A DNA stretch of 64,000 nt from an uncultured Lentisphaerales bacterium (GTDB lineage Bacteria; Verrucomicrobiota; Lentisphaeria; JABSQK01; JAJFLO01). Where the stretch lies: the NCBI GenBank assembly GCA_964615975.1, contig CAZTTH010000001.1:6559-70558 (forward strand). Reading direction: 5' to 3'. A model generated the notes under the pieces. That model saw only the letters and a list, made by a program, of their open reading frames with translations. It searched no databases and had not been told where the DNA came from. Both the position numbers and the translations under genes were made by a program. Shown piece after piece: positions 4,524 to 51,241 of the stretch; positions within the stretch are counted from its first letter, which is position 1, and every line of letters starts with the position of its first letter.

Positions 4524-5813
4524 CTATTTATTGAGGTCTGAGTAGCTGGGAAGGCTGTCTTTCCCCTCTAGGCCTTTGAATGGAATTACTTTCTTATAAA
4601 ACGAGTCTACTAAATAAAGGTGTTGTTTGCCCCCAAAGTTTCGCGTGCAGACAATATGCCGACCATCCGTCGCCCAGGAAGGTGATTCCCAATCGCCAGC
4701 TATATTGATCAAGACTTCAGGGTCACGATCATTTGAATTCATATCGACATAGGCAATGGTGTATTGATTGCCGCTCGCCATGGAAAAACAGATTTTGTTT
4801 GATACCTTGGACCAATTAGGGGATACTGATTCAACCGGTATTCGCAGGAGTCGTTTTGGTGTTCCACCAGTTGCAGAAATTGTGTAAATCATAGGGCGAT
4901 TGCCGACATCATCGGAAACAAAACAAATTTGCTTATCGTCAGGCGACCATGATGGTGAAGACTCAGCTCCTTCGCTATTGGTCAGGCGATCTAGTTTACC
5001 ACTGATTAAATCCATGACATAAAGATCGACATTGCCATCTTTGCTCAAGGTCATTGCAGCCGTGAGGCTGTTTCGCGCCATGGCGGCACTGCTATTCAAA
5101 CCTGGGAAACGGGTTACACGTTTATGAATTTTCTTATGCATATCCACCATAATGATATCGGTAGAATAGTTGTTGTAGTAGGTATAAATTAAAAAGCGGT
5201 TGCCGTTTCCCCAATCAGGTTCCACTGAAATCCCGTTATTGCGGGTAAGTTGATACGCATTGCTGCCATCGAAGTCAGCAATCCAAATTTCTTTTTTCCC
5301 TTGCCAGTTTTTTACATAAGCGATGTGGGTGGAGCAAAATCCCTGGGTTTTGAATATTTTTGAAATTATCTCATCAACCGTGTTGTATATCAAACGGTGA
5401 GTGGGGTTGATCTTTTCGGTTTTTTGCTCAAATCGAGTAATCGGATTTTGATCGGAACTCGAGATTTGGATTTTAATCAATTTCTCGTTGGAATTTTCTT
5501 GATATGACGCCGTGATATAATAGTCGGCTTTGGTATTATCATTCACCACCTCGAACCAATCGCAGAAAATAAGAGTGTTTCGCAGCATTTGTTTGACTTC
5601 TTCATTGCCATAAAAAGAATCAATCGATAATGTCGGGTTTTGGGTAAGGGCTTTTTTGACCACTGTCAGGTCTTGAGGAATGTCCGATAATGCCATGTTA
5701 TAAGGAAAAATGACATTCACTAATAAGATGCCAAGAATAATTATGGTGACTTTAAAAATTCGAAGATTTGAAAATGATTTACAGGAGGAAATTAATCGAA
5801 GGTAGATGGGCAT
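4524..5813 (-). CDS. tolB: TolB-like periplasmic beta-propeller protein
   Basis: 429 aa with an N-terminal signal/TM segment. Repeated WSPDG-like blades (PDWGNGNRFLIYT, PSWSPDDKQICFVSD, PNWSKVSNKICF, PSWATDGRHIVCT) are typical of TolB/WD40-like propellers. Confidence 0.7.
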   Translation of the reverse strand: MPIYLRLISSCKSFSNLRIFKVTIIILGILLVNVIFPYNMALSDIPQDLTVVKKALTQNPTLSIDSFYGNEEVKQMLRNTLIFCDWFEVVNDNTKADYYITASYQENSNEKLIKIQISSSDQNPITRFEQKTEKINPTHRLIYNTVDEIISKIFKTQGFCSTHIAYVKNWQGKKEIWIADFDGSNAYQLTRNNGISVEPDWGNGNRFLIYTYYNNYSTDIIMVDMHKKIHKRVTRFPGLNSSAAMARNSLTAAMTLSKDGNVDLYVMDLISGKLDRLTNSEGAESSPSWSPDDKQICFVSDDVGNRPMIYTISATGGTPKRLLRIPVESVSPNWSKVSNKICFSMASGNQYTIAYVDMNSNDRDPEVLINIAGDWESPSWATDGRHIVCTRNFGGKQHLYLVDSFYKKVIPFKGLEGKDSLPSYSDLNK

Positions 5814-14600: not shown

Positions 14601-15062
14601 TCAAATCCTATTGCATTTATAATTGGATTAAAATTCGTCCTCTCTTTTTCATCACTTGAGTGATGATGTCAATTAGTTTTATTCTTACCATTAATTGGTT
14701 AAATATTCCCCCATAGACTTTGTACTAAGAGATGTCCTATGATAGATACTCGATATAGACAATATCGTTGTATAAGCTTGGGTAGGGTAGAGCGGTGTTC
14801 AAGGTGGCAGTTTTCTATGATCAGCTAATTATCAGTATGATCTAATCATGGCTATTGGATGATGATAGTTTGCATGGTTTTGCTTCTCAATTTTGAGAGG
14901 TCATCATATCTTTTCGATACTTATCTTGCCTGCGTGTGCTGCTGATCTGAACTATTTATTCACAAACCCTTTACCAGTGTTAATTTTGGATTATAATTCT
15001 CTTATCTGTTGATTCGTAAAATCGAATGGATTTAATAATCTAAAAATCTATTATAAATCCCT

Positions 15063-15611
15063 ATGGATCATACACTCTTTATTCCTGTAAAAATTGATAA
15101 TATCACTTTGAGTAATCTGGGTTTCATCGTTTTCTTGAAACATGAAAATGATGATAATGTGTTACCCATATGTATAGGTGCAATGGAGGCTCATTCGATA
15201 GCTGCGTCATATAATAATCAACAATTCCCGCGTCCATTATCCCATGATTTATTTCGCAATATTTTAGTAACCTTAAACTGTGTTGTTTCAAAAATATATG
15301 TTACCGATTTGATCGATGGAACATTTTATGCGCGAATTTACCTTAAAAATGGTAAGGAAGAAATAGATATTGATTCTCGCCCCTCAGATGCCATTGCTAT
15401 GGCATTGCGCTTCGACGCACCAATATTTGTTCATGCAGATGTTTTAAAGTCAGCTTCAGTAAATATGAATCAACTTCGGGATAACGTCGATGAACCCATC
15501 GATCCAATACAGAAATTGAAGGACGAGTTAAAAAAAGCCATTAATGAAGAACGGTATGAAGATGCCGCCACGATCCGTGATCAGTTGCTCAAAAAAAAAG
15601 AATCCAATTGA
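15063..15611 (+). CDS. bifunctional nuclease (DUF151) with C-terminal UVR motif
   Basis: 182 aa. The conserved BFN core is present (…ICIGAMEAHSIA…RPLSHDLF…YARIYLKNGKEEIDIDSRPSDAIAMALR). The C-terminus has a UvrB/UvrC-type motif (LKKAINEERYEDAATIRDQL). Confidence 0.75.
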   Translation: MDHTLFIPVKIDNITLSNLGFIVFLKHENDDNVLPICIGAMEAHSIAASYNNQQFPRPLSHDLFRNILVTLNCVVSKIYVTDLIDGTFYARIYLKNGKEEIDIDSRPSDAIAMALRFDAPIFVHADVLKSASVNMNQLRDNVDEPIDPIQKLKDELKKAINEERYEDAATIRDQLLKKKESN

Positions 15612-16663
15612 AGAGAAAATTAACAACCAATAATTCATCGGATAATGATCCGTTAAAAATAACGAAATTAAAAAAATCTCTTCCGCTTCCGCCTCTTCCA
15701 ATTGACATTGATGGTTTGCCGTCAATGGCTGAAATTTTTGATTCTCATGACCCCCTCTCATTTCCTAATCATTCCCACCCCATTCCTCAAAAACGGATGA
15801 ATCGCGTTAGCGATTTTAATTTCCTGATTCAGACCAAAAATTTACCTGATATGGTTGAATTGATCGCCAACAATCAGTTAAATTTTAGCAAGGAAGAAGA
15901 TGATCAGGTTTGGATTAGAGAATTGAACAGTGATACATGCGTAGTTTCATTTTCTAATGGGAATATAGGAGTTATCGAAACCCAAACACTTCCGACGGGG
16001 GTAAAATTAATAAAAGGAGACCTAATATTAGTTAGATATTGTTCAAAAACCGCATCCGATTTACCTATTAGATGTCAATTTATTAAACTAATCAGTCGTG
16101 AAAAACTAGTTAGAAATCGAGCTGAACAAAAATCTAAATACCATGCGATTGCGAAGCAAAAATTTATTATCGATGCCTCAAATATATGCCGTAGCTTCAA
16201 CCCTGCTGATTCAGGATCATCGCTGTTGCCATTGCTAACCCTTGTATTGGCATTGTGCAAACGTCAAGCCCGGATTTATTGTGTCTTTGATGCAAATGAA
16301 CGTTATATATTGCAAAATAACGTTAATGAGGTTGGAAATGTTGAATTTTATCAAATGCTGCTGGATAAATTCAAGCACGTTTTTTTTGAAGTTACTCCAG
16401 GTACCCAGGCGGATGATTACCTCTTGGAATTAGCAGACCGCTTTAACTTAATTGTTATCAGTAATGATCATTTTGATAAACAACACGACCAGCACACTCA
16501 ACAGTATTCCTGGCTTAGAATTGGATCAAAGCGATTGATATCCGGCACGTTGGAAAATCAATTGCTGTGTCTGCCCAATTTAGGGTTGGAACTGTCACTT
16601 CGTGGTAATTTACCCGGGATTATCAGTGAATTGTTGCGTACGAAGATCAGAAAATCATTTTGA
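15608..16663 (+). CDS. NYN/Zc3h12a-like ribonuclease domain protein with uncharacterised N-terminal domain
   Basis: 351 aa. The C-terminal 140 aa (FIIDASNICRSF…IYCVFDANERY…ADDYLLELADRFNLIVISNDHF) align in pattern with the Zc3h12a/NYN PIN-like RNase core (IDGSNV…VFVP…DDRFIVKLA…IVSNDTY). The TTG start overlaps the upstream stop, implying coupling. The N-terminal ~190 aa are unrecognised. Confidence 0.6.
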   Translation: MKRKLTTNNSSDNDPLKITKLKKSLPLPPLPIDIDGLPSMAEIFDSHDPLSFPNHSHPIPQKRMNRVSDFNFLIQTKNLPDMVELIANNQLNFSKEEDDQVWIRELNSDTCVVSFSNGNIGVIETQTLPTGVKLIKGDLILVRYCSKTASDLPIRCQFIKLISREKLVRNRAEQKSKYHAIAKQKFIIDASNICRSFNPADSGSSLLPLLTLVLALCKRQARIYCVFDANERYILQNNVNEVGNVEFYQMLLDKFKHVFFEVTPGTQADDYLLELADRFNLIVISNDHFDKQHDQHTQQYSWLRIGSKRLISGTLENQLLCLPNLGLELSLRGNLPGIISELLRTKIRKSF

Positions 16664-17977
16664 TTATGATCGAGGATGATTTCGTATGGCGATTGCTCGT
16701 TGATGTCCGGGAAGATCTTCTATTCCGGCTAAATCACAGATTGCCCCGCTTTCATCAAGCAATGCGTTCCGGTCATATTCAATCACACTTATACGGCGAA
16801 GAAATTGTCCGGTTGTCAGCCCACTAAAAAACGTGGCGGTACCGCCTGTAGGCAATACATGACTGGGGCCTGCGATATAGTCTCCAACCGGTTCAGGTGT
16901 CCATGGACCAATAAATATTGCTCCTGCAGTGGTTATCTGTGCCGCTAATTCACGAGCGTTTTCGGTCATTATTTCAACATGTTCAGGAGCGATTTCATTA
17001 ATTACTTGTAATGCTTCATTAAGGTTGTTTACCGAGATCAAATAAAAACCGTGATCAATAACCTGTTTAATCTGATCTGGATTTTTGTGGTGGTGAACTT
17101 GCAGATAAATTTCTTCTTTTACCTTGCTGATCAATGAAGTCGAATTAGTTACCAGAATGGATAACTCATAGCCAGATCCATGTTCAGCTTGTGCTAACAT
17201 GTCCGCAGCGACAAAGCCTGGATTAGCGGTGTTGTCAGCTATAATTGCGATTTCAGAAGGACCCGCGATCATGTCAATGCCGACACTACCGTAGACTAGT
17301 TTTTTAGCAGTAGAAACATAAGCATTGCCAGGGCCGACAATTTTATCAACTTTCGCTATAGTTTCAGTACCGTAAGCGAATGCTCCGATGGCATAGACAC
17401 CCCCCAATCGATAAACTGCAGATGCTCCGGCTATGGAGGCAGCATATCGAATTGCGGGATGAATTAATTTTGTTGGTCCAACTGGAGTAGTTATGATTAT
17501 TTCCTTAACCCCGGCGACCTTGGCTAGTGTGACGGTATGAATTACTGTTGATACCAAGGGTACATTGCCACCGGGGATATACGCAACGACACGGTTGAGC
17601 GGTACAAAGCGTTCTCCCATTTTGACCCCAAGTCGGGGGCTGTAATGCCATGATTGTGGCGTAAACTGTTCTGAAAATGAACGGATGTTATCATGCGATT
17701 TGCGGATCGCATCTTTTATTTTGGAGTCAAGCTGACTGGCTGCGCTTTCGATATCAACGGTATTTAGTTGAAACTCGGGAGGATTAAGATCTACATTGTC
17801 ATAGCGTTTTGCGTATTCGATTATGCTAAGGTCTCCTATCGTCCGTACGTTTTTTAAGATTGCCGCGACATCCTTTTCGATTTCAAGAGGCAGCCCACAA
17901 TTGTTTCTCATGAGCTTGAGGTTGGATTTAAAATCGATATCTGCTACATGCAATAATTTCATAATGATCTCGATCAA
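16664..17977 (-). CDS. hisD: histidinol dehydrogenase
   Basis: 437 aa; …GPSEIAIIADNTANPGFVAADMLAQAEHGSGY… and a C-terminal HisD signature. Confidence 0.9.
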   Translation of the reverse strand: MIEIIMKLLHVADIDFKSNLKLMRNNCGLPLEIEKDVAAILKNVRTIGDLSIIEYAKRYDNVDLNPPEFQLNTVDIESAASQLDSKIKDAIRKSHDNIRSFSEQFTPQSWHYSPRLGVKMGERFVPLNRVVAYIPGGNVPLVSTVIHTVTLAKVAGVKEIIITTPVGPTKLIHPAIRYAASIAGASAVYRLGGVYAIGAFAYGTETIAKVDKIVGPGNAYVSTAKKLVYGSVGIDMIAGPSEIAIIADNTANPGFVAADMLAQAEHGSGYELSILVTNSTSLISKVKEEIYLQVHHHKNPDQIKQVIDHGFYLISVNNLNEALQVINEIAPEHVEIMTENARELAAQITTAGAIFIGPWTPEPVGDYIAGPSHVLPTGGTATFFSGLTTGQFLRRISVIEYDRNALLDESGAICDLAGIEDLPGHQRAIAIRNHPRS

Positions 17978-21438: not shown

Positions 21439-24036
21439 TTATTCCTTGGATACACTACTTCGCGTGGAGAATTGGTAATCATTATCAAAATAATCGATTT
21501 CTAACGCCATGTTTTCACTGATTTCGTTGCCTATCAGCATACGTGAAATTGGCGTTTCCAAACGGCGGGAAATCACACGTTTCAATGGCCTTGCTCCATA
21601 TATCGGATCGTATCCCTCATGGGCTAATTGTTTTTTGGCATTTTCCGCAACAATCAAATCTATCTGCAGTTTTTTCAGTTTATCTTTAAATAATTCTAAC
21701 TGAATGTCTACAATTTTTACCAGGTCACAGTCGGATAATGATTTAAACACGACGATATCATCTATTCGATTGAGAAATTCTGGACGGAATATCTGACGTA
21801 ATGCCATCATGACCTCATCTTTTTTCTTTGCTTCGGTGAGCGATTCATCTAAAAGAATCCCGCTACCAACATTTGAGGTCATGATAATAATGGTATTTTT
21901 GAAATCGACAATATGTCCCTGGGAATCTGTCAAACGTCCATCATCAAGTAATTGCAATAACACATTAAATACTTCTGGATTAGCCTTTTCTATTTCATCA
22001 AAAAGTATCACGGCAAATGGATGTCGCCGAATGGCTTCGGTCAATTGTCCGCCTTCATCATATCCCACGTAGCCAGGGGGAGCGCCAATTAACCTGGATA
22101 CACTGTGTTTTTCCATGTATTCAGACATGTCAATGCGCACCAATGCACGTTCATCGTCAAACATTAATTCAGCAAGGGCACGGGCTAATTCGGTCTTACC
22201 TACTCCTGTTGGCCCTAAAAATATAAAACTACCAATTGGTCGATTGGGGTCTTTCAGACCTGCACGAGAGCGGAGTATGGCATCGGCAACCGCATCAACC
22301 GCTTCATTTTGGGATATTACTCGTTGATGAAGCAGGATGCCAAGTTGCAACAAGCGTTCCCGTTCACTTTGTAATAATTTGGTTATCGGGATGTGCATCC
22401 AACGACTGATTATTTCAGCAATATCGTTCTCATCAACCTCGCGTTTTAACAGTCTCTTTTCACCGGAATCGGCGATTCGTTTTTCAGCGTCATTTACCTG
22501 GCGTTCCAAATTAGGAATAATCCCATAACGCAGTTCGGCGACTTTATTCAAATCATAATTTCGTTCTGATTCTATGAGATTACGTTTCGCCAATTCGAGA
22601 GATTCTCTTAGGGCTTGGATATCGCTTATCGAATTTTTTTCCGCATCCCATTTGGCCTGCATAACCTGTAAATTCTCGTTGAGATCATACAAATCTTCTT
22701 CCAGTTTTTCCCTGCGTAAGTTTGATTCGTTATCACTTTCTTTTCTTAGTCCGGTAATTTCAATTTCCATTTGCAGTTTGCGCCGCGCTAATTCATCAAT
22801 TTCTACAGGACGACTATCAATCTCGGTCCGTAATTTTGCGGCAGCTTCATCGATCAGATCTATGGCTTTGTCCGGCAGGAATCGTTCGGAAATATAGCGA
22901 TTGGATAAAATTGCGGCACTGACAAGAGCGGAATCACGGAGGGTAACCCCATGATGTACTTCATAACGTTCCCTAAGGCCGCGTAAAATTGAAATGGTAT
23001 CTTCCACACTTGGTTGATCGACTAAAATTGTCTGAAATCGACGTTCAAGCGCCTTGTCTTTTTCAATGTGTTTGCGATATTCATTCAGAGTGGTGGCGCC
23101 AATACAATGAAGTTCACCACGCGCCAGCATTGGCTTTAAAAGATTCCCAGCGTCCATTGCGCCTTCTGCAGCGCCGGCACCAACCACGGTGTGTAGTTCA
23201 TCTATAAAAAGAATTATATCACCTTTTGCTTCAATGACTTCCTTGAGTACTGCCTTTAAACGTTCTTCGAATTCACCCCGATATTTTGCCCCAGCAATCA
23301 ATGCCCCCATATCGAGGGCGATAATGCGACGCTGCTTTAAGCCATCCGGAACGTCCTGTTGTATAATCCTTAATGCCAATCCTTCGACAATTGCAGTTTT
23401 ACCGACACCGGGATCACCGATCAGGACGGGATTATTTTTGGTGCGGCGTGATAAGATTTGAATAACCCGGCGAATCTCATCGTCACGGCCTATCACTGGA
23501 TCGAGTTTATGCTGTTGTGCTGCCGCAGTTAAGTCCCGTCCATATTTTTCTAATGCCTGAAATGTTGCTTCTGGAGTTGGTGAGGTAACCCGTTGATTGC
23601 CGCGAACTTCTCTTAGACCACCAAGAAGTTTAGCCTCATTGATACCAAATTTACCTATAATTGAATCACACTCATGATCCGTTTTGATTAAAGCGAGGAG
23701 TAAATGTTCGACGCTGACATAATCATCCTTCAGTTTTTTAGCGATTGATTGTGCTTCATTTAATGCCTGACTGAATTCACGGGTGGCAGATGGTTGTCCT
23801 ACACCGGGACCCGTAACTTTTGGTATCTTCATCAAAGATCGATCAATTTCATGTTTGATATCGTTAATCGCGACACCCAATTTTTCGAATAAAGCGGGGG
23901 TGAGCCCATTTTGCTGATTAACCAATGTGCTAAACAGATGTATTGGATGTAAATTCTGATGTTTCAACTCCGTAGCAAGTTGCTGAGTCACGACGAGTGA
24001 TTCTTGGGATTTTTCAGTAAAATTATTGATATTCAT
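21439..24036 (-). CDS. clpB: ATP-dependent chaperone ClpB
   Basis: 865 aa with an N-domain, two AAA+ modules (GDPGVGKT… and …[11 protein letters not shown]…), a long middle coiled coil and a C-terminal …[25 protein letters not shown]…. Confidence 0.95.
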
Positions 24037-30112: not shown

Positions 30113-30370
30113 AAGTCTTGAAAAGGAGTATGGTGTGTTATATGAACAGTATCTGATAATATGATTTCAGATGAAGTTCATCAACTTGCAAGGTCATGCT
30201 GACAATTGGTATTTTGCAAATACTGTATATGGTTGGAATCAGTTAATGGTGTTATAAAATTTTATTATACTATGTCGTGTGCCGATGATAAAGGCTTAAT
30301 ATTATCTGAGGCTGAGTTAATTATTCAATTCATTGTCTGGGAATGATAATAGTCCTTGAAGAGGAAGTTT

Positions 30371-31636
30371 ATGATTCGTTTAATTGAAGCCTTAAATTTT
30401 CGCAATCTAAATTATATTCGCCAACCGGTTCATAACTTTCAAGTGTTGATTGGTACTAATGGTTCTGGCAAGTCGAATTTTCTTGACATACTTTCCTTTT
30501 TAGGACGATTTATATCCAAAGGAGCGAAAGTGGCCATCACCGAACGAAGTAATAATTTTCGTGATTTGACCTGGCGTCGAAATGCCAACCGTTTTGAATT
30601 GGCAATCGAAGCTGAAATCCCCCCAGAACATCGACGTCCCTTAGACTCCCCTGAATACGATATCATTCGTTATGAGTTCGCAATTGGTATCACCCCTGAA
30701 AACCAGGATCTGATTTCATTTGATGAACAGATTACTTTGATTCAACAAAGCGAAATGACGGAGAGTGCGGTCAGCTCTTTGGAGAAAATCCCAGATACAG
30801 TATTCGTTGCTGACTACCACCAAATGTATAAGCAACTAATAGCCTATGATGAAAAGGGGAATTTATTGTTGTACCCGGAAGAGTCATTTGAAAATCAGGG
30901 GTGCCTGACATCTGACAATTACCTTTTACCCAACCGTCTCGAACCCAACCTATCGGTTTTTTGCGCCATACAAGCTTTCGAGAATGAATTTCCAGCTGCC
31001 AATTGGCTGGTACGTTTTCTCACTCAAAGTTTGTTTCAAATTCGATTGGATAGCTCCACCATGCGTCAACTCAGTCGTTATGGTCAGGAGTTTCTATTTA
31101 CCGAATATGGCGCCAAGCTGCATTGGGTAATCGAACGAATTAAAAAGGAAACACCAGATCGATTTGTTGATTGGTTGACGCAAATAAAATCACTGATGCC
31201 AGACCTCGAAGATATTGTCATCCATGAACGTCCAGATGACCGAAAAAAAATTATTGCAATCCGTTATAATGATGGGTTTGAAATCCCATCGGGTTTAATG
31301 TCAGAAGGGCTCCTGCGCTTGCTGGCGTTGACCAGTCTGCCATATTTTCCTGATAAGGGTTATCTATGTATTATTGAGGAACCTGAGAATAATCTGCATC
31401 CATTAGCTTTGGAGATTGTTATCCGGAATTTACGATCGAATTTTTCTGGTCAGATCATAATGACTACTTATTCGCCATTTGCTTTGGGATTATGCCATGC
31501 GCATGAGGTGCTGATATTTTCTGCTGATTCCCAACATGGCGCCCAAATTACCAGTGGTTCACAACACCCTGGTATCTCATATAATTTGGCTGACAGTGGA
31601 TTAAAGACTTTATTTGAAATGGGGGAATTGAATTAG
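30371..31636 (+). CDS. orphan AAA_21/ABC-type ATPase (OLD/PtuA/AriA-like P-loop protein)
   Basis: ATG at 30371 is preceded by GAAGAGGAAG. Walker A is VLIGTNGSGKSNFLD. ABC-signature-like region plus Walker B/D-loop is LLRLLALTSL…YLCIIEEPENNLHPLALE. H-loop-like region is QIIMTTYSPFAL. There is no fused nuclease domain and no partner gene. Confidence 0.7.
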   Translation: MIRLIEALNFRNLNYIRQPVHNFQVLIGTNGSGKSNFLDILSFLGRFISKGAKVAITERSNNFRDLTWRRNANRFELAIEAEIPPEHRRPLDSPEYDIIRYEFAIGITPENQDLISFDEQITLIQQSEMTESAVSSLEKIPDTVFVADYHQMYKQLIAYDEKGNLLLYPEESFENQGCLTSDNYLLPNRLEPNLSVFCAIQAFENEFPAANWLVRFLTQSLFQIRLDSSTMRQLSRYGQEFLFTEYGAKLHWVIERIKKETPDRFVDWLTQIKSLMPDLEDIVIHERPDDRKKIIAIRYNDGFEIPSGLMSEGLLRLLALTSLPYFPDKGYLCIIEEPENNLHPLALEIVIRNLRSNFSGQIIMTTYSPFALGLCHAHEVLIFSADSQHGAQITSGSQHPGISYNLADSGLKTLFEMGELN

Positions 31637-31724
31637 AAAATCATCTCTTGGTTTTGTTAAGGTCACCATTTCTATGATTATTCAACTATAAACTTAGCTT
31701 ATCATTGTCAGGGAATGATTAAGA

Positions 31725-32939
31725 TTAATTCGTTATCGTTGGCGTCAGAGTTGTGAGTGAACATTTCATAAGTTCAGGAATATCGAGTTTGGATTCTTCA
31801 TCAAGTACACGGCCAAGCAAGGCGCCGGTAGCAGGCGATCGTGGTTCAAACACTACGCAACAATCTGGACTATATTGTTCCGATATTTCCAAAGTGCCAA
31901 TCCTGCGTCCGATCGACACGGTCTCATACTTATCCATGCTGATTAATGGCCGAAGGATCAAATAATCTGTAGCGCGATTGATTGCATCCATGTTTTTGAG
32001 CGTTTGACTAGCTACTTGTCCGACGACATCACCCGTTACCAATGCTGTTAATTTCAAAACCCGCGCCACGTGTGCGGCTATGCGTATCATCAATCGCCGG
32101 TAAAGAATGGTGCGATATTTATCCAGGCAAATATCCCGGATGATTTTTTGCGCTGCACTGATATTGCAAGCGTACAAGATTCCTGCGGTCTGATAACGAT
32201 TTAAGACTTTGACCAGTTGCCCCACCTTATCCAATGTTTCTGCTGGAGTGTAGGGATAACTGTGAAAAGTGAGAAAATGCAATCGGGTTCCACGTTTCAT
32301 TGCAAGATAACTGGCCACCGGTGAATCGATCCCTCCGGATAATAATGACAATGCGCTTCCATTCGTTCCACTGGGAAGCCCACCTGGACCGGGAAACTCA
32401 TTAAAATAAATGAAGCTCCAATGTTCTCTAATCTCGAGACCAATATCGATCTTTGCCTCCTTAAGATTCAACTGCAAGCGCGGATAACCACGTAAGAATA
32501 AGTCCGAAAAATGGATTTCAATTTCCTGTGAAGTCATGGGAAATGGTTTCCATCCCCGTCGGGCACGCATACGATAAGTGATTGGCGTGTCATCTCCAAT
32601 CTGACCAGCACTGAGTTGATAAATTTCGGGGAAATGACTCTTGATGGCTGCCACAATGGTGGAAAAATCCGTTGCTACCTTGATCCCTGGGGAATAGGAT
32701 GATAGGCCAAAAACCAGAGGCATTCGACTATAAATGCCTGCGAGTTGTTCAGTAGTAAAAGGTTGAAAGCGGGATTGGTGCAATAATATCCGGCCGCGTT
32801 CACGCAGGAAAAGCGGCTCCATAATGTCCTGTATGGTCCGTTTGATCCCAGTCAAAAACAGCCGTTCGAACATACCGCGATTATGTCCCTTGGTGGCTAT
32901 TTCATTGTACCGACACATGATTGTGTTATACAGCGGCAT
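31725..32939 (-). CDS. thiI: tRNA 4-thiouridine synthase / thiamine biosynthesis protein ThiI
   Basis: Start trimmed to an internal Met (MPLYNTIMCRYNEIATKGHNR…), leaving THUMP and PP-loop ATPase regions (SGGIDSPVA). The 24 upstream codons in the track ORF are translation of the tRNA-Gln repeat. Confidence 0.85.
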   Translation of the reverse strand: MPLYNTIMCRYNEIATKGHNRGMFERLFLTGIKRTIQDIMEPLFLRERGRILLHQSRFQPFTTEQLAGIYSRMPLVFGLSSYSPGIKVATDFSTIVAAIKSHFPEIYQLSAGQIGDDTPITYRMRARRGWKPFPMTSQEIEIHFSDLFLRGYPRLQLNLKEAKIDIGLEIREHWSFIYFNEFPGPGGLPSGTNGSALSLLSGGIDSPVASYLAMKRGTRLHFLTFHSYPYTPAETLDKVGQLVKVLNRYQTAGILYACNISAAQKIIRDICLDKYRTILYRRLMIRIAAHVARVLKLTALVTGDVVGQVASQTLKNMDAINRATDYLILRPLISMDKYETVSIGRRIGTLEISEQYSPDCCVVFEPRSPATGALLGRVLDEESKLDIPELMKCSLTTLTPTITN

Positions 32940-32979
32940 GAGAGGGTAGATAAGTAAGAAATTAGCAACTGAATAAAAT

Positions 32980-33031
32980 TGGTTACCCCGCCTGGACTCG
33001 AACCAGGACAAACAGGATCAAAACCTGTTGT
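32980..33031. repeat. 52-bp direct repeat (att site), partial 3' copy of tRNA-Gln
   Basis: TGGTTACCCCGCCTGGACTCGAACCAGGACAAACAGGATCAAAACCTGTTGT is identical to 41779-41830. It corresponds to the 3' 52 nt of the tRNA-Gln gene. Confidence 0.9.
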
Positions 33032-33147
33032 TATAGGTATAAAAATTAAATAGTGTGGTTGTTATGTGGTGATAATTCATGTATAATAGTGTCATATAGT
33101 TTCTATTGGTGTTAGTTAAATCATTAATCAATTAAAGGGATAATCGT

Positions 33148-34467
33148 ATGGCACGTCATAACAAGGGCACACTCTACAAACGCGGTAAAATTTACTGGCT
33201 TGAATATTACGTTAATAATGAGCGAATTCGAGAAAGTCTTAAGACCAGCAATCTCAAAGAGGCACAATCCAAGCGGGATATAATAATCAACGACCTGAAA
33301 GCCCGCAAGAATGAAGACAAACATATCGCTATCCTCCATCGAGTCAAAGATGCAGAACATGCCCGCATAGAAGCCGAACAGAAACTTCAGGATTTCCGCG
33401 AAGAAAACCGAACTAAATTGAAAATAACCGATGTTTGGGAGCATTACCTTGCCAGTAAAGAACGTCCTCAATCCGGTCAAGGAACATTAAAGGATTACGA
33501 TTATTGCTGGCGGAAATTTGTTATGTGGTGGTCGAATAATGATGGCGATCAACGCCCGTATGTAGAGGACATCAAAAAAGAAGACGCCTCGAAATTCGCC
33601 AGATTTCTTGATACAGAACAATTAAGTCCGAACCGTTACAATAAAATTATTATTTCCTGCAAGCTGGTATTAAATGTTATTGCCCCTTTATGCAATGATA
33701 TGGCCAATCCTTTTGCCGGGATTCGGAATAAACGGCTTGACCCTCAAGGTCATCGAAAATTGACCGTTGAAGAACTCCGAATAGTGTGTGGTAAAGCAAC
33801 CGGTGAAATGCGCGTTTTATTTGCGATTGGTTTGTTCACTGCTCTGAGAATGGGAGATTGCTGTACTTTGCAATGGAACGAAATCAGTTTAGAACTTGAT
33901 CGCATCGTTAGAAAACCCAATAAAGTCAAAAGTCGTAAGAAAAAGAATACCCTTATTATTCCCCTGCACCCCGATCTCCGGAAAATCCTTGTTGAGATCC
34001 CCCAGGATACGCGGCAAGATTATGTTTTACCTGAATATGCCAGTCTCTATCTTAGAGATCGTGGCGCGGTCAGCAAAAAAATACAGCAACACTTTACTGA
34101 TTGTGGAATAGATACCAAGGGGGGAAGGACTGGAAAAAATGCACCGCCCGAAGTTGGATTCCATTCGCTCAGGCATACCTTTGTCAGCATGGCTGCTCAA
34201 GCGGGTGTTCCATTACCGATCATTCAGGAATTGTGCGGCCATGAATCTTCTGCCATTCAACAGGTATATCTTCATATGGGAGAAGATGCTACCCGGCAAG
34301 CTATCCTAGCCTTGCCGAATATCGGCAATCCCGTTAACGACAACCAGCTTCTCCCGATGCCATCCAGTCAATCCCGAAATCAAGAAGCCATCGCCTTACT
34401 GAATTCCATGAATGCCAAAAACTGGGATGAAATCAAAGATAAAGTAATTAGAATACTATCTTCTTGA
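33148..34467 (+). CDS. int: tyrosine-type site-specific integrase
   Basis: 439 aa; catalytic residues in …TALRMGDCCTLQW…, HSLRHTFVSMAAQAG and …VYLHM (R…HxxR…Y). Sits adjacent to the attL repeat. Confidence 0.9.
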   Translation: MARHNKGTLYKRGKIYWLEYYVNNERIRESLKTSNLKEAQSKRDIIINDLKARKNEDKHIAILHRVKDAEHARIEAEQKLQDFREENRTKLKITDVWEHYLASKERPQSGQGTLKDYDYCWRKFVMWWSNNDGDQRPYVEDIKKEDASKFARFLDTEQLSPNRYNKIIISCKLVLNVIAPLCNDMANPFAGIRNKRLDPQGHRKLTVEELRIVCGKATGEMRVLFAIGLFTALRMGDCCTLQWNEISLELDRIVRKPNKVKSRKKKNTLIIPLHPDLRKILVEIPQDTRQDYVLPEYASLYLRDRGAVSKKIQQHFTDCGIDTKGGRTGKNAPPEVGFHSLRHTFVSMAAQAGVPLPIIQELCGHESSAIQQVYLHMGEDATRQAILALPNIGNPVNDNQLLPMPSSQSRNQEAIALLNSMNAKNWDEIKDKVIRILSS

Positions 34468-34479
34468 CTCAATTTAGAC

Positions 34480-35970
34480 TTAATCATTATTGGAGTTAAA
34501 CCATCGAATTTCTTTGTCAATAGCAGCTATAATTGAATTTGGAAATATGTAAATAAGGGGAAAATATACACCATGTGAACGGTAATGTAACGCGGTTACA
34601 ATAAAACCGATTTTACTCATAGCCATATTATCATATTTGAGCTGATTAAATATTTGGCAAACTGCTGCTTTTGAACATCCTAAAATTTTCCCTATATCAG
34701 TTAAAAAAGGCTTCAGATCAACCATTCCCTTCTTTGCATCATGTCTTTTTATTCGCCTTAGTGATTCCAATTCATTTAATGTCAAACCGATATCACTCGA
34801 AACAGTTTTTGCGATTGTGTAAGATTCTAAATCTTGGTCTATTGGGTACCAGCACATCCCACATTCCGGGCACTTAACTTCAATGTTAAAATTCGAATTA
34901 TCATCATTTGACAACTCGTCATCTTTCCATTTTTCGTCAGTATCAACTACATAAGATGTTCGATTTTTATCAATCCATTTCCCCTTTATTTGGCATGTCT
35001 GACAAACTAGTTTGCTTGGAGCTAAGATTTGATTAAGAAACCCTTTAACCAAAACATAAGTTTCATGGTTATTGAGAGTTGGATTTTTTCTCTTTTGATA
35101 TTCAAAAAGCTTTCCATAAATTAAATCAAAATAAATCTTTTCATCTTGAGGATTTCTTTTTTGACTAAAAATCGAATCTAAGTGAATCAGCAAACCTTGG
35201 ATGTATCGAATTTGCCCATTTGTGAATGAAGTCATCAAATTCATAAATTCATTACTGGGCTTTGGTAAACACGGATAAAGTTTTTTTGATAACTCACATA
35301 CCCTGGCATCCTTGAAAGTTGTTTTACAAGAATATTTAGGTAGCCTTATATTTTTTGTTAACTCCCGTGGCATAAAAAGTAATCGCCACAAGATAATTAT
35401 CTCTCGTGTTTTTGACGATTTCACAATGATATTATTTGCTTTGGGCTTCCAGTTCCATTTTATAACTGCATCTAATGAATAAAATTTTTTCTTATCTCTC
35501 CTCTCTATTGAATTCCCTAATTTCCCCTTATTAGCTGCTCTTTTAATTGTTGGAATTGATTTGCCAGTTAGTAAGTTTATATCATCATATCCCAGTCCCT
35601 TATCGTACCCCCATGAAGTTTGAACCCTCGGATTAATTAAGGTTTTTTTATATATCTCCCTCAATCGTTGTAATTCACATTCAAGAATCTTGTTTTGGTC
35701 AGTTAAAGTTAAATCAATTCCATGTAACCTGATCTTTATGTTTGCAGATGGAGGAAAAACTTCCCATTCTTTTGGAAAGTAAACTTTGAATGGAATTTTG
35801 AATTCAAATTCATAGTGGTCAATGATTGAAGCCAGAATATTTGTCAATAACTCATATATAAAGTATATAGCGTTACTTTCTTCTAATTCAGTAATTCTTC
35901 CCTTCTGCAAGTCGTTATCCAAAACGCTCGATCTTAACGGTGTGTTCATAATCTTCTTCATAGGTCGCAT
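34480..35970 (-). CDS. hypothetical 496-aa island protein (Zn-ribbon CxxC…CxxC, C-terminal HTH-like segment)
   Basis: Long AT-rich ORF convergent with int and divergent from the XRE gene. Contains CQTCQ…CPECGMC and a C-terminal DIGKILGCSKAAVCQIFNQL helix-turn-helix-like stretch. No family recognised. Confidence 0.55.
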   Translation of the reverse strand: MRPMKKIMNTPLRSSVLDNDLQKGRITELEESNAIYFIYELLTNILASIIDHYEFEFKIPFKVYFPKEWEVFPPSANIKIRLHGIDLTLTDQNKILECELQRLREIYKKTLINPRVQTSWGYDKGLGYDDINLLTGKSIPTIKRAANKGKLGNSIERRDKKKFYSLDAVIKWNWKPKANNIIVKSSKTREIIILWRLLFMPRELTKNIRLPKYSCKTTFKDARVCELSKKLYPCLPKPSNEFMNLMTSFTNGQIRYIQGLLIHLDSIFSQKRNPQDEKIYFDLIYGKLFEYQKRKNPTLNNHETYVLVKGFLNQILAPSKLVCQTCQIKGKWIDKNRTSYVVDTDEKWKDDELSNDDNSNFNIEVKCPECGMCWYPIDQDLESYTIAKTVSSDIGLTLNELESLRRIKRHDAKKGMVDLKPFLTDIGKILGCSKAAVCQIFNQLKYDNMAMSKIGFIVTALHYRSHGVYFPLIYIFPNSIIAAIDKEIRWFNSNND

Positions 35971-36055
35971 CAAAAGATCCTAATAGCTTAACCTTTGTAA
36001 GGAGTTAACGCCAACATACGTGGCAATAACAACCAAAAATATAAAGGCAAGTATT

Positions 36056-36283
36056 ATGAATGAACAAACCCCATTAAGGAAACATCGGCTATCAAAAAAA
36101 TGGACGATGTCAAAGCTGGCAAAAGAAGCCAGAGTCTCACTATCAACACTATCAAGATATGAAAACGACTGGGACACACCAACATATCAAACAGCTCAAC
36201 GCCTGGCTATCGCCTTGGAAGTGGAAGTCAGTCAAATCTATCCCAATAAGACTCTTAAAGAATCGGGGAGGGCTCTGATATGA
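36056..36283 (+). CDS. XRE-family helix-turn-helix transcriptional regulator
   Basis: MNEQTPLRKHRLSKKWTMSKLAKEARVSLSTLSRYENDWDTPTYQTAQRLAIALEV is a canonical HTH_XRE. The ATG at 36056 is preferred over the track start. Confidence 0.8.
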   Translation: MNEQTPLRKHRLSKKWTMSKLAKEARVSLSTLSRYENDWDTPTYQTAQRLAIALEVEVSQIYPNKTLKESGRALI

Positions 36284-36630
36284 AATTCAAGAACAAACCT
36301 CCTGAAAGTACACTCCTGGCAATTGTCCATCTGATTCAACCATTTGTCAGAGAAGAAATAACCCCCCAACTTCTGATCGAGACCTTGAAGCAATTCATTC
36401 CCAATCATGAAGCAAACAACCAAACTTCATCAATCCCCATTGCAAAATCGATTTCGATAATCGAAGCGGCCAACCGTCTCAATGTGAGTAAATCAACGAT
36501 CTGGAGATTGATCCGGGTGGGGATACTGAAACGATCAAAACTGGGCTCAAGAACCGCTCGCATTTCAGAACGTGATCTTGCAGCATTGATAGAGAAGGGA
36601 GGTTACGACTATGAGAAAAAACAATCGTAA
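36280..36630 (+). CDS. AlpA/excisionase-family HTH protein (HTH_17-like)
   Basis: C-terminal SIIEAANRLNVSKSTIWRLIRVGILKRSKLGSRTARISERDLAALIEKG matches MerR-type excisionase/AlpA HTH. Overlaps the XRE stop. Confidence 0.65.
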   Translation: MKFKNKPPESTLLAIVHLIQPFVREEITPQLLIETLKQFIPNHEANNQTSSIPIAKSISIIEAANRLNVSKSTIWRLIRVGILKRSKLGSRTARISERDLAALIEKGGYDYEKKQS

Positions 36631-36841
36631 TCACTCTCAACAAGCATACTTTGTCGGCCATTATACTGGAAAACAGATTCCCAAATGTACTTGTTGTGGG
36701 ATCCTCATTACGAACTGGAACCTTGGCGGGAGCAATCGAGAAAATGGAAGTACCATTACTGGTAATGTTCCTTGCAATCGTTGTGTCGATCCTGAATGCC
36801 CACCGGATTGTTTAGTTGTAAAAGAGGGAGTCAGCTTATGA
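36611..36841 (+). CDS. small Cys-rich (zinc-ribbon-like) protein
   Basis: 76 aa with CTCCG…CNRC…CPPDC. The ATG start overlaps the upstream gene, and its stop overlaps the primase ATG (ATGA), suggesting a coupled operon. A small ORF, so uncertain. Confidence 0.4.
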   Translation: MRKNNRNHSQQAYFVGHYTGKQIPKCTCCGILITNWNLGGSNRENGSTITGNVPCNRCVDPECPPDCLVVKEGVSL

Positions 36842-39390
36842 ACACCCCCCTTATCCAATTCATGATCGACGACTTGGCAAAATCCGGAATCTCATACAAA
36901 TGGGCTGTAAAACACGGATTAAGACCAGTGAATGCCAATGAATTGGCTTCCATGCTTGGATTTTCCCCCAAGAATATCAACGGTAACCAGTGTGAAGGTT
37001 ATGTAATCCCGTTCTTTGATCCCATCACGAAAAAACCCATGTTTTGCCCAGATGGTCACCGTGATTATGTTCGCGTCAAGCTCCGTGTTCCGGCCATCGA
37101 CAAAGATGGCGACCCGGCAAAATACCTTTCACCAAAAGATGCTGGCCAACATGCTTTGATTCTGCCTGAAGTCCATGCTTATTTACAAGATTCACAAAAG
37201 CCGGTAATAATAACTGAAGGTGAGAAGAAAGCCTTGGCTGCAACCCTGGCTGAATTGCCTACTATCGCATTGACCGGCAATCATGGCTGGAATATCGGCA
37301 AGACCAATGAACTATTGCCGGAATTATCCCGCTATATCGATCATAAACTGTGGATTGCCGTTTATGATTCCGATGCCAAAATCAATCCTGATTTTCACCG
37401 TTCCTTGGCACGAATGGCATTCGCGCTGTCAAAATTTGATTGCCAGCTCTATGCCGTCTATCTCCCGTCCATGGGCAACGGCAAAGTGGGGATCGATGAT
37501 TACTTGGTCGAACATGGCAAGACCATTGACGACTTAACGCGATACATAAATGAAACCAAAACCCTGGTCTCCACTGAAGATATTCCAATATCAACAAAAC
37601 CGTCGAATCACAAATCCAAGCGTTCACCCAATCAAGCGGAATTATTGGTACGTTTGACTAAAGAAATCACCTTATTTCACGGCCTTGAAGATTGCACCAA
37701 AACATATGCCAGCATTTCAATCGACAATCATTTTGAAACTTGGCCATTAAACAATCAATGTTTTTATAATTGGTTATCAAAACAGTATTATAAGACATAT
37801 AAAAAAATCCCCGGATCACAAGCAATTAACGATGCAGTAAAAACCGTTCAGGGCATTGCTCAATTCGACAAAGAAGCAATTCATGTGGGAATAAGATTCA
37901 CTTTCTATCAAGAAAGTATTTGGCTTGATCTGTGCGATCCAGAATGGCGAATCGTTAAAATTTCATCCAATGACTGGAAAATCGTTTCCGCCAAAGATGC
38001 CCCGGTAAAATTTATTCGTCGTCGTGGAATGCTACCATTGCCACAGCCTCAATCGGGGGGAAACTTCGATGATCTCAGACAACTATTGCATATCGAAGAC
38101 GATCAAAATTGGTATTTGATACTTGGTTGGCTGACCGGAGCATTACATCCCACCGGTGGATATCCCATGTTGGTAGTTAATGGCGAACAGGGGAGCGGTA
38201 AAAGCACACTGTGCAAATTTTTGCGATACTTAATTGATGCCAATACTGCCGCCCTGCGTCGCCCCCCCAAAGAACCAAAAGATTTATTCATTGCCGTTAA
38301 AAACAGCTACTTGATTGCATACGATAATCTTTCCAGTGTTCCTGATTGGTTATCGGATTCTTTGTGTACAATATCGACAGGTGGTGGATTTGCGACGCGG
38401 GAATTATATAGCGATGATGAAGAAATAATAATAAACGCTGTACGCCCGATAATCATTAATGGCATTCCCAACCTGGGGACTCGATCCGATTTGGTGGATC
38501 GTTCAGTTTGTCTACAAATGAAAGAAATTCATAACCAACAACGTAAAAGCGACCTTTACCTTGAAAATGAATTCTCTCGTTTAGCCCCATCTCTAATTGG
38601 AAAACTATGCGAAACCGCATCACATGGACTTCGTAAATATCGGCAAATTGAATTATCTGAAACGCCACGCATGGCGGATTATGCTCAATGGATTGTCGCT
38701 TGTGCCCCCGCCTTGGAATTTCATGAAAATACTTTACTGAATGCCTATCTATCTAATCGTCAGGAAATCAATCTTGATACCCTTGAACATTCGCCGCTTG
38801 CCAAAATAATTGAACGCTATTTGGAATCCGATCATCGATGGCAGGGAACATGCGGAGAACTCCTTAAGGCATTTCAGAAACTTTGTAATGATGATACTTC
38901 AGTATCTTCATCAGATTTACCCAAAACATCAAGAAAACTATCCAATGATCTAAAGCGCATTGCACCCAATTTGCGTATGAACGGGATCGAAGTTCAATTC
39001 GGTAACAAAACGAATAAGGGCAGGACAATCACTTTAGAAAAGGTTGGGAAAACACCGTCACATCCGTCACCATCGTCACAAAATAATCATAAAATATTGA
39101 ATACGAATAACATAGATTCTCATACAACCAGTGATCATTGTGTGACGTTTACCCAGAAGAGTGACGATACCGATTCATTATCAAATAACCCGGTGTCGAT
39201 TGAAGAAAGAAATATGATCATCAGTGATGGTGGAAAAGATTCGAAAGTCACCATCGCAACCAGTTGCAAACAAACTTCTTCTGAATCAACAGATCATTCA
39301 AGTGACGATAGTGACGATTGCCACCCCATATCTTCTAAATCGATATCTGAGAATGAATATGATCCCAATGTTACAACCTGGTTGTATTGA
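36838..39390 (+). CDS. replication primase-helicase (TOPRIM/DUF3854-like domain + P-loop NTPase) with Ser/Asp-rich C-terminal tail
   Basis: TOPRIM-like PVIITEGEKKALA…IAVYDSDAKIN…GIDDYL. Walker A VVNGEQGSGKST and Walker B LIAYDNL, typical of P4/D5-type primase C-terminal helicases. The last ~130 aa are low-complexity S/D/T-rich. Confidence 0.8.
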   Translation: MNTPLIQFMIDDLAKSGISYKWAVKHGLRPVNANELASMLGFSPKNINGNQCEGYVIPFFDPITKKPMFCPDGHRDYVRVKLRVPAIDKDGDPAKYLSPKDAGQHALILPEVHAYLQDSQKPVIITEGEKKALAATLAELPTIALTGNHGWNIGKTNELLPELSRYIDHKLWIAVYDSDAKINPDFHRSLARMAFALSKFDCQLYAVYLPSMGNGKVGIDDYLVEHGKTIDDLTRYINETKTLVSTEDIPISTKPSNHKSKRSPNQAELLVRLTKEITLFHGLEDCTKTYASISIDNHFETWPLNNQCFYNWLSKQYYKTYKKIPGSQAINDAVKTVQGIAQFDKEAIHVGIRFTFYQESIWLDLCDPEWRIVKISSNDWKIVSAKDAPVKFIRRRGMLPLPQPQSGGNFDDLRQLLHIEDDQNWYLILGWLTGALHPTGGYPMLVVNGEQGSGKSTLCKFLRYLIDANTAALRRPPKEPKDLFIAVKNSYLIAYDNLSSVPDWLSDSLCTISTGGGFATRELYSDDEEIIINAVRPIIINGIPNLGTRSDLVDRSVCLQMKEIHNQQRKSDLYLENEFSRLAPSLIGKLCETASHGLRKYRQIELSETPRMADYAQWIVACAPALEFHENTLLNAYLSNRQEINLDTLEHSPLAKIIERYLESDHRWQGTCGELLKAFQKLCNDDTSVSSSDLPKTSRKLSNDLKRIAPNLRMNGIEVQFGNKTNKGRTITLEKVGKTPSHPSPSSQNNHKILNTNNIDSHTTSDHCVTFTQKSDDTDSLSNNPVSIEERNMIISDGGKDSKVTIATSCKQTSSESTDHSSDDSDDCHPISSKSISENEYDPNVTTWLY

Positions 39391-41778: not shown

Positions 41779-41853
41779 TGGTTACCCCGCCTGGACTCGA
41801 ACCAGGACAAACAGGATCAAAACCTGTTGTGCTACCGATTACACCACGGGGTA
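41779..41853 (-). tRNA. tRNA-Gln (anticodon TTG), intact; 3' 52 nt form the right att repeat
   Basis: Minus-strand sequence TACCCCGTGGTGTAATCGGTAGCACAACAGGTTTTGATCCTGTTTGTCCTGGTTCGAGTCCAGGCGGGGTAACCA. Acceptor TACCCCG/CGGGGTA. Anticodon stem ACAGG/CCTGT with loop TTTTGAT. Confidence 0.85.
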
Positions 41854-48396: not shown

Positions 48397-48740
48397 ATGT
48401 GTAGAGTGGAGGTTTATCCATTATTAAAGTGGCGACTTTGTTATTTTAACCAGAGCAGCTTTTATGGTGTCGAAAAAGGTATTCAATACAATTCTCTCCG
48501 TTTTTGAATAACCACCTGAGCTCATTCAATGATTGCTGGATGAGATCAATTCAATGGCTTATGTTGAATTATTAATACAGATCAAATTACAGACAAATAT
48601 GGTCATGACGCTTAATCCTAACTAATGTTGCCGCAATAATATCCTGTAAGTATTGATATAGGGTCGACTACAACATAAGTTAAAAGGCAACAGCCCCGCT
48701 GAAAATAAGTCAGACGAAATAAAGTTAAGCATTCGCAGCT

Positions 48741-50762: not shown

Positions 50763-51241
50763 GTGGTATATTTTCTACATAAACGAGGTTTAAATTTTCA
50801 TCGCATTAACTGCCTTGCTTAAAAGGACATTTACCGACAGATAAGTCAGCATACTCGGCAAATATTATCTTACGGTTGTGATGAACTTATTTTAACCTTA
50901 CTTACAGTACCATCGCTATTTGCCCAGCCTCGCTGGGAGGATAGGTGACTTGAAATTCCGCATCTCCTTCCGAAATCAACTCATTGGTATTTTCTGCTAA
51001 AAGTTTATGAACAAATGAAAAGATCAAATCAGAATGACATTTCCCCCGACCATGGTATCATATGTTCATTTTTTTCAGTAATATGACATAAAACTTACAT
51101 GTCGAGAATTGTAACCATGTCGGAAGTTTGGCGCAGTTTCGAATTACCCAATGTATAGATGAAGAATGATGGATGCAAGTCAGCTCCTGTAAGCGGAGTG
51201 AAAATTTAAGCTTGACATCACTCACCAAAAAATATTTGAAG

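Follow-up and report, generated by a model that had tools for sequence, protein, structure and literature searches.

A predicted Zc3h12a-type ribonuclease with an S1-like barrel and a repeated tail motif in Lentisphaeria-like bacteria, and its place behind a BFN-UVR gene

Introduction

A 64,000-nucleotide stretch of DNA from an uncultured Lentisphaerales bacterium (GenBank assembly GCA_964615975.1, contig CAZTTH010000001.1, positions 6,559 to 70,558), referred to here as the window, carries two overlapping genes, of which the first encodes a BFN-UVR protein (a DUF151, or BFN, domain followed by a C-terminal UVR motif) and the second a protein ending in a nuclease domain of the Zc3h12a type, referred to here as the NYN protein. 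The reading that we favour, and hold to be reasonably probable, is that the NYN protein is a chromosomal endoribonuclease confined to one lineage, put together from known modules and serving in RNA turnover or processing, and that its order behind the BFN-UVR gene is inherited. Bacterial proteins of its Pfam family, PF11977, are entered as 'Unknown function in bacteria' in the main survey of these nucleases (Matelska et al. 2017, PMC5499597), hence the interest of the subfamily described below. What is new here is an architecture specific to bacteria of the Planctomycetes-Verrucomicrobia-Chlamydiae (PVC) group within this uncharacterised bacterial branch of Zc3h12a-type RNases, to which the subfamily adds a basic tail, one to three copies of a short motif and, in most members, an S1-like OB domain.

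The two genes and the parts of the NYN protein lie in the window as follows:

15063..15611, + strand: BFN-UVR gene, 182 aa, with DUF151/BFN at residues 23-135 and the C-terminal UVR at residues 149-180 (Pfam)
15608..16663, + strand: NYN gene (the second open reading frame, ORF), 351 aa from a TTG start
15608..15611, + strand: TTGA start/stop overlap of 4 nt, the NYN TTG (15608-15610) lying over the BFN-UVR TGA (15609-15611), read from the sequence
15608..15892, + strand: basic disordered tail, NYN residues 1-95 (AlphaFold2 confidence; basic cluster in homologs)
15701..15739, + strand: tail motif, copy 1, IDIDGLPSMAEIF, NYN residues 32-44 (alignment, regular-expression scan, predicted helix 40-45)
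15827..15865, + strand: tail motif, copy 2, IQTKNLPDMVELI, NYN residues 74-86, directly before the OB domain (alignment, regular-expression scan, predicted helix 82-90)
15893..16096, + strand: S1/IF1-type OB barrel of five beta-strands, NYN residues 96-163 (AlphaFold2, Foldseek, family profile)
16157..16573, + strand: Zc3h12a-type NYN/PIN-like nuclease domain, NYN residues 184-322 (PF11977 match, Foldseek)
16574..16663, + strand: C-terminal helical tail, NYN residues 323-351, plus the stop codon (predicted secondary structure)

The nuclease domain and its predicted active site

The initial annotation had assigned the C-terminal part of the second protein to the Zc3h12a/NYN RNases from its motifs, and both profile and structure bear this out. 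The Pfam model RNase_Zc3h12a (PF11977) matches the domain over model positions 3-140 of 154 (E = 2.1e-06, 28.0 bits against a cut-off of 23) and matches all 15 of the family members compared, and the AlphaFold2 model gives residues 185-330 an alpha/beta fold with a predicted local distance difference test (pLDDT) score above 90. This is the PIN fold of Regnase-1: Foldseek searches of the PDB return Regnase-1/MCPIP1 (5h9v, 3v34) and ZC3H12C (7ndk, 7ndi) at target TM-scores (TMt) of 0.63-0.70, root-mean-square deviations (rmsd) of 3.8-4.5 and a probability of 1.00, and also pair the domain with PRORP. NCBIfam models gave nothing informative for the gene, the NYN_YacP/Rae1 model (PF05991) did not match at E<=1, and neither a CCCH pattern nor a zinc-finger Pfam match was found in the protein, which ends about 29 residues past the nuclease domain.

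The motifs IDASNI, VFDAN, ADDYLL and ISNDHF are all present, and the invariant columns of the family include D189, S191, N192, D228, E231, D269, S285 and D287. From this conservation the predicted active-site residues are D189, N192, D228, E231, D269, S285 and D287. In the alignment with KHNYN, whose IDGSN, (D)D-x-LA and SND motifs and C-terminal beta-hairpin element all find their counterparts, D269 is the second aspartate of the Zc3h12a DD pair and S285-N286-D287 the SND motif. We take the catalytic set of MCPIP1 to be D141, D225/D226, D244 and D248 with N144 and S242, in which case D141/N144/D226/S242/D244 presumably equate to D189/N192/D269/S285/D287, while D225 falls on A268 and D248 on K291. 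An additional invariant pair, D228/E231 of the FDANE element, is absent from MCPIP1 and may supply the acidic ligands missing at these two positions, and judged from the alignments the active site looks competent, though unlike that of the eukaryotic enzymes.

An S1-type OB domain behind a disordered, motif-bearing tail

The region of about 190 residues ahead of the nuclease had been taken for a novel N-terminal domain; structure prediction resolves it, with no new fold, into a disordered tail followed by a diverged OB domain of the S1/IF1 type. In the AlphaFold2 model built on the family alignment (mean pLDDT 76.7), the barrel reaches a pLDDT of about 90, and 88.1 when the domain is modelled by itself, and a linker of some 20 residues joins it to the NYN domain. 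Foldseek pairs the barrel with IF-1, with the S1 domains of NusA, Rrp4/Rrp40 and bS1, with MJ1198, and with the OB domain of RsgA (query TM-scores, TMq, 0.55-0.64, rmsd 2.1-3.3, probability 1.00). A family profile of the OB region finds bS1 (E = 4e-11), constructs holding one S1 domain (about 1e-4) and NusA (3e-3); the Pfam S1 model (PF00575) matches three of the 15 family members, at best with 5e-4, and the window protein taken alone gives no match to it at E<=1. Classical S1 domains contact RNA through aromatic and histidine residues on strands 2 and 3, in the fGaFV and GLvHvS motifs. Profile alignments place aliphatic or charged residues at these positions in both the family consensus and the window protein, as they do in domain 1 of bS1.

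Residues 1-95 are predicted to be disordered (pLDDT 42-67) save for two short helices, 40-45 and 82-90, which coincide with two copies of a motif of consensus lPlDlxdMPsMdELL. The homologs likewise start with a basic cluster followed by this conserved short motif, and a regular-expression scan recovered 22 carriers among the relatives fetched, mostly with two copies about 45 residues apart and with a range of one to three. Across a six-frame scan of all the DNA examined (approximately 486,000 residues) every match fell inside a NYN-family ORF, which marks the motif as a true family-specific linear motif; its predicted structure is a short amphipathic helix inside the disordered region, and it can be used as a specific probe for finding family members.

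The family and the wider clade

Finding relatives required an index-free search, since a word-indexed homolog search found only the NYN protein itself and its profile version just three members. At E < 1e-3 among 1.84 billion representative sequences, the index-free search yielded 359 relatives, most of which align over the NYN domain alone and about a dozen over most of the length. Relatives of near-full length are P0122, P0124, P0126, P0128, P0130-P0135 and P0139, and short forms that carry the motif without the middle OB domain are P0123, P0125 and P0129. The family comprises about 25 members and is restricted to Lentisphaeria-like PVC bacteria; all of its named sources are Lentisphaeria or 'Verrucomicrobia' metagenome-assembled genomes. 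One match, P0127 (3075 aa), whose 17 matched stretches suggested a giant protein with many NYN domains, proved to be repetitive sequence of Ig-like/autotransporter type, a compositional artefact.

Beyond the family, the same NYN core follows other N-terminal modules. Pfam scans place IF2_N (PF04760), the small domain with which initiation factor 2 begins, ahead of it in P0150, P0155, P0159, P0171 and P0198, and resolve P0167 (613 aa) into HEAT, two S1 domains, Zc3h12a-NYN and a cold-shock domain (CSD). By eye, P0156, P0177, P0183, P0185, P0193, P0202 and others have hydrophobic segments and coiled-coil-like stretches before the nuclease, a layout similar to that of the membrane-anchored RNase Y, and some weaker relatives have zinc ribbons. 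The wider bacterial clade thus swaps its N-terminal modules, a pattern that points to RNases sent to different substrates or cell sites and that fits the published rule that it is accessory RNA-binding domains which make Zc3h12a/PRORP nucleases specific (PMC5499597). Neither a bacterial S1-NYN protein nor the tail motif nor the IF2_N-NYN architecture was found described in the literature searched.

Comparison with known ribonucleases

The eukaryotic members of PF11977 (Regnase-1/MCPIP1, ZC3H12B-D, KHNYN and N4BP1) share nuclease fold and Pfam family with the NYN protein at a sequence identity of only about 16-20%, and as in the Regnase/KHNYN group an accessory nucleic-acid-binding domain can be expected to give it its specificity (PMC5499597). 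Unlike them, the NYN protein is bacterial, and in place of a CCCH zinc finger, KH or ubiquitin-binding domain it carries an N-terminal S1-type OB domain. The design in which an S1/OB domain sits beside a catalytic nuclease domain is that of RNase E/G, PNPase, RNase II/R and the PIN+S1 protein Rrp44/Dis3, whose catalytic domains are, bar the generic PIN fold of Rrp44, unrelated to that of the NYN protein; the latter differs also in placing its OB domain N-terminal to a Zc3h12a-type NYN domain and in lacking the classical aromatic RNA-contact residues. A further relative in function might be Rae1/YacP of Bacillus subtilis, a ribosome-associated endoribonuclease of the NYN class that acts on mRNA (PMC12407103, PMC10351889), should the PVC enzyme act together with the translation machinery. 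Rae1 belongs, however, to another NYN family (PF05991), consists of one domain with a GYN motif, and has neither S1/OB domain nor tail motif.

Gene start, overlap and transcription

Both reading frames were confirmed at 15063-15611 and 15608-16663, and the overlap of the TGA with the TTG is real, its start codon being backed by homology. The sole database copy of the NYN protein is a 312-residue version that starts at ATG 15725 (M40). A conserved stretch around motif copy 1, LPIDIDGLPSMAEIF (residues 29-45), spans that annotated start, and from the preceding in-frame stop to the motif TTG 15608 is the sole ATG, GTG or TTG codon. The 351-residue model is better than the public annotation because the motif conserved in all relatives spans M40, and with this gene model the overlap with the BFN-UVR stop is, on the sequence, likewise better supported; a corrected gene start for the database entry is one practical gain. 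Four-nucleotide start/stop overlaps with unrelated neighbours are common in the NYN family (L020, L021/L022, L007), so that the overlap alone tells little about function.

A promoter and terminator scan found no + strand terminator between the two genes. The G+C content is 36.9% in the NYN gene and 36.1% in the BFN-UVR gene, against 41.7% for the window. Downstream lies a convergent gene, known from the ORF list and neighbour annotation:

16664-17977, - strand: hisD

The NYN stop, ending at 16663, touches the hisD stop (16661-16666) with zero spacer, which leaves no space for terminators between the convergent transcripts; the gap between BFN-UVR and hisD is about 60-210 bp in relatives without the NYN gene.

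The BFN-UVR protein

The assignment of DUF151 and UVR to the first gene stands, in that order and both above threshold: BFN_dom (PF02577) scores 130.4 bits against a cut-off of 27 (3.2e-38) and UVR (PF02151) 29.6 bits against 21.5 (5.2e-07). Homologs number 910, the closest being 71-75% identical, and their named sources are Lentisphaerae, Kiritimatiellae, Planctomycetes, Verrucomicrobiota and Fibrobacterota. The layout of DUF151 with a C-terminal UVR is shared with plant BBD1, BBD2 and OmBBD (PMC7249048), although the window protein is bacterial and lacks the plant HCR region. Whether the BFN domain is a nuclease is uncertain, the literature being split: plant BBD1 and BBD2 are nuclease-active in vitro (PMC7249048), whereas neither DNase nor RNase activity was seen with Cor/Rv1829 of Mycobacterium tuberculosis, which has DUF151 only (PMC3870250). 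Plant DUF151-UVR proteins stand out among the interactors caught by a ClpC1 trap (PMC8889267). The description of the locus as two nucleases is not supported, given the inactive Cor and the ClpC1 association of the plant proteins. 'DUF151' matches in a mutant-fitness preprint turned out to be DUF1513 and are irrelevant. An 865-residue ClpB-type AAA+ unfoldase is encoded about 6 kb from the BFN-UVR gene (21439-24036, - strand), of interest only through the binding of plant DUF151-UVR proteins to ClpC1; no UVR motif was reported in it at E<=1e-5.

Gene order and the question of a two-gene system

The NYN gene follows the BFN-UVR gene in three related genomes, at spacings that vary from -4 nt in the window through about 60-90 nt at L009 (OFTM300; BFN 75% and NYN about 31% identical to the window proteins) to about 500 nt in OFTM198 (GCA_021772635.1). 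In this last genome two contigs, L017 (JAJFLP010000048.1), which ends 343 bp after the BFN gene (4550-4892), and L005 (JAJFLP010000039.1), which begins about 300 bp before the NYN gene (1-300), were joined through an exact terminal overlap of 141 bp to give the order BFN, about 500 bp of spacer, NYN, an unrelated gene of 393 aa, hisD and IMP cyclohydrolase. A tRNA-like stretch (a T-arm string) in this spacer was examined with ARAGORN and is no tRNA.

Elsewhere the two genes part company. At least seven loci (L001-L004, L016, L018 and L019) have BFN-UVR with no NYN gene downstream: in L001, L003 and L004 it is followed by convergent hisD and IMP cyclohydrolase, in L018 by convergent hisD and an aldo-keto reductase, and in L002, L016 and L019 by other genes. 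The NYN gene stands apart from BFN in at least nine loci (L006, L007, L008, L010, L011, L012, L020, L021/L022 and L023). It keeps a position between HMG-CoA reductase/IDI-2 and CdsA/PurA in L006, L011 and L012, follows an HAD hydrolase in L008 and L020 (with the 4-nt overlap in L020), precedes DUF192 in L021/L022, follows gyrB-gyrA in L023, the home of P0122, which is the closest full-length relative, and has further contexts in L007 and L010. L023 comes from the sample that also yielded L003 and is closest to L003 in tetranucleotide composition (r = 0.94), which fits, without proving, a single organism in which BFN and NYN are unlinked. The neighbours of the NYN gene were ordinary metabolic or informational genes at every locus looked at, those in the window being a DegT aminotransferase, a GFO/IDH/MocA oxidoreductase, hisD, IMP cyclohydrolase, T2SS-F, a polyprenyl synthase, the ClpB-type ATPase and GlmS.

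The comparison across genomes thus reveals no obligate pairing, and the dedicated coupled module proposed in the initial annotation is not supported, the pair being linked in only three genomes. BFN, hisD and IMP cyclohydrolase occur together in L001, L003, L004 and the joined L017+L005, with or without NYN between them. Because these genes remain neighbours in spite of their unrelated functions, inherited local synteny with losses or relocations is the simplest reading of the BFN-NYN order.

An alternative that we regard as unlikely is that BFN-UVR and NYN form a functional two-component module in which BFN-UVR regulates, inhibits or delivers the RNase, variants being an antitoxin-like partner or a UVR adaptor to a Clp unfoldase, with the RNase released under stress or infection. 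Such a module would account for the same order and orientation in three diverged genomes and the 4-nt overlap in the window; UVR motifs mediate protein-protein contacts, plant DUF151-UVR proteins are trapped by ClpC1 (PMC8889267), and the NYN proteins (about 30% identity) evolve far faster than the BFN proteins (72-75%). The many unlinked copies of either gene, together with the variable spacing, speak against it, as do the far greater frequency of BFN-UVR (910 matches against about 25), the lack of PADLOC, phage or plasmid matches detailed below, and the equal synteny of hisD and IMP cyclohydrolase with BFN without any functional link.

Just upstream of the BFN-UVR gene, synteny breaks. A conserved protein of about 1140 aa without a Pfam match precedes BFN-UVR in L001-L004, next to fmt and RNase E/G; the window has the DegT aminotransferase and the GFO oxidoreductase there instead.

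A possible link to the ribosome

That the PVC motif and the domain-1-like barrel tether a Regnase-type RNase to the translation machinery is, as we see it, quite improbable. If true, it would mean a ribosome-anchored mRNA endonuclease arisen independently of Rae1, and the IF2_N-NYN and S1-S1-NYN-CSD sister fusions would be variants of the same strategy.

In its most specific version, which has S2 at the S1 site as the target and which we consider very unlikely, motif and OB domain would mimic the N-terminal helix and domain 1 of S1 and so dock the RNase on S2, on the side of the 30S subunit where mRNA exits; the enzyme would then be a functional counterpart of Rae1 without detailed homology to it. 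The best PDB match of the family profile is indeed bS1 (9zcd_A, E = 5e-9, best stretch 26.5 bits), in an alignment that lays motif copy 2 over the N-terminal helix of S1 and the OB domain over domain 1. Of the six repeats of Escherichia coli S1, domain 1 obtains the top score with the OB-only profile, and the OB domain shares with domain 1 the lack of the classical RNA-contact residues. The free N-terminal peptide of S1 suffices for 30S binding (PMC4288201), which would explain the OB-less motif carriers P0123, P0125 and P0129, and the sister architectures with IF2_N, S1 and CSD modules fit the same idea. Docking of S1 on S2, however, needs pi-stacking by two conserved phenylalanines, and changing either F5 or F9 to alanine abolishes binding (PMC4288201), whereas the NYN motif has methionine and leucine at the aligned positions; strict mimicry of the S1 N-terminus is downgraded because these two S2-binding residues are unmatched. 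Domain 1 is, moreover, preferred by a narrow margin, scoring 15.7 bits where domain 6 scores 12.3 and domain 4 scores 12.1; a helix before the barrel is general in S1 repeats, as the alignment of domain 2 illustrates; and the motif, mostly present two or three times, has an LPLDL prefix without counterpart in S1.

Defence, toxin and mobile-element tests

An abortive-infection or toxin-type role for the locus, raised in the initial annotation, finds no backing. Neither protein matches a PADLOC model at E<=1 or contains a Pfam domain of toxin-antitoxin type, 50,697 phage records and 72,556 plasmid records hold no NYN homologs, BFVD returns only generic OB or NYN fold matches, and no defence-island or mobile-element neighbours, only housekeeping ones, occur at any locus examined. 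We also hold it to be highly improbable that the NYN protein acts by itself against phages, as an abortive-infection effector, or as a toxin, its degradation of RNA being set off by a trigger. For this reading one could cite that NYN nucleases do turn up in defence settings, as with the NYN protein associated with type III CRISPR in Bacteroides fragilis (bioRxiv 10.1101/2024.04.08.588522), and that the family is patchy and fast-evolving; against it count, besides these negative searches, the lack of a conserved immunity or sensor partner and a G+C content near that of the neighbouring BFN gene. The locus adds no new defence or toxin system.

The upstream region

Ahead of the BFN-UVR gene lies a region for which a regulatory role had been suggested:

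14601..15062, + strand: AT-rich intergenic region, 462 bp, 32.9% G+C, no ORF >=50 aa on the + strand

The region is indeed AT-rich and free of + strand ORFs, and no convincing small ORF was found in it; a special regulatory element, by comparison, gains no support from Rfam, which gives nothing at E<=1 bar one chance lncRNA match, or from DNA conservation, none being detected with the equivalent regions of nine BFN-locus relatives. A sigma-70-like TTTACC-16-TATAAT lies at 14970-14997, and promoter-like sites in the region are no more frequent than in shuffled sequence. The region probably holds the promoter and 5' untranslated region.

Other features of the window

An Rfam scan of the window found three tRNAs, all away from the BFN/NYN locus. 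At 30356-39390 an AAA_21/AbiEii-like ATPase (30356-31636), a phage-type integrase (33148-34467), a 497-aa ORF without a Pfam match and a DUF3854 protein (36796-39390) lie near a tRNA gene (41782-41853, - strand); this segment may be an integrated mobile element, unrelated to the BFN/NYN locus. Three consecutive large genes for sensor histidine or hybrid kinases with PAS and GAF domains (712, 673 and 1220 aa) occupy 46258-54835.

Discussion

As we picture the enzyme, the acidic cluster (D189, D228/E231, D269 and D287, with N192 and S285) would bind Mg2+ or Mn2+ and cut single-stranded RNA, the OB barrel would hold the RNA substrate or a partner beside the open active site of the NYN domain, and the two tail motifs would dock the enzyme on a partner. 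It would serve RNA turnover or processing in Lentisphaeria-like PVC bacteria, and in the window genome its gene would be co-transcribed with, and translationally coupled to, that of BFN-UVR, with no obligate two-protein system.

Several observations weigh against this picture of a chromosomal RNase in inherited surroundings. RNase activity, and RNA as the substrate, are predictions from sequence and modelled fold. The invariant Ala (A268) and Lys (K291) that distinguish the family from the Regnase group, replacing the first aspartate of the DD pair and the last of SNDxxxD, mean that the chemistry could differ. The OB domain may have a protein instead of RNA as its ligand, since it is without the classical RNA-contact residues, as is domain 1 of bS1, which binds protein. 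A patchy distribution and rapid evolution, as the family has them, are features that conflict genes typically show too. Finally, the order of BFN then NYN is kept across genomes of 42, 50 and 56% G+C though the NYN proteins are only about 30% identical, a persistence for which a functional link could be the reason.

RNA decay in PVC bacteria is, to our knowledge, essentially unstudied. The locus is of use for bacterial RNA-decay biology and for annotation: it defines within these bacteria a coherent subfamily, in which an S1-like barrel and a NYN domain follow putative docking motifs, and its architecture is testable.

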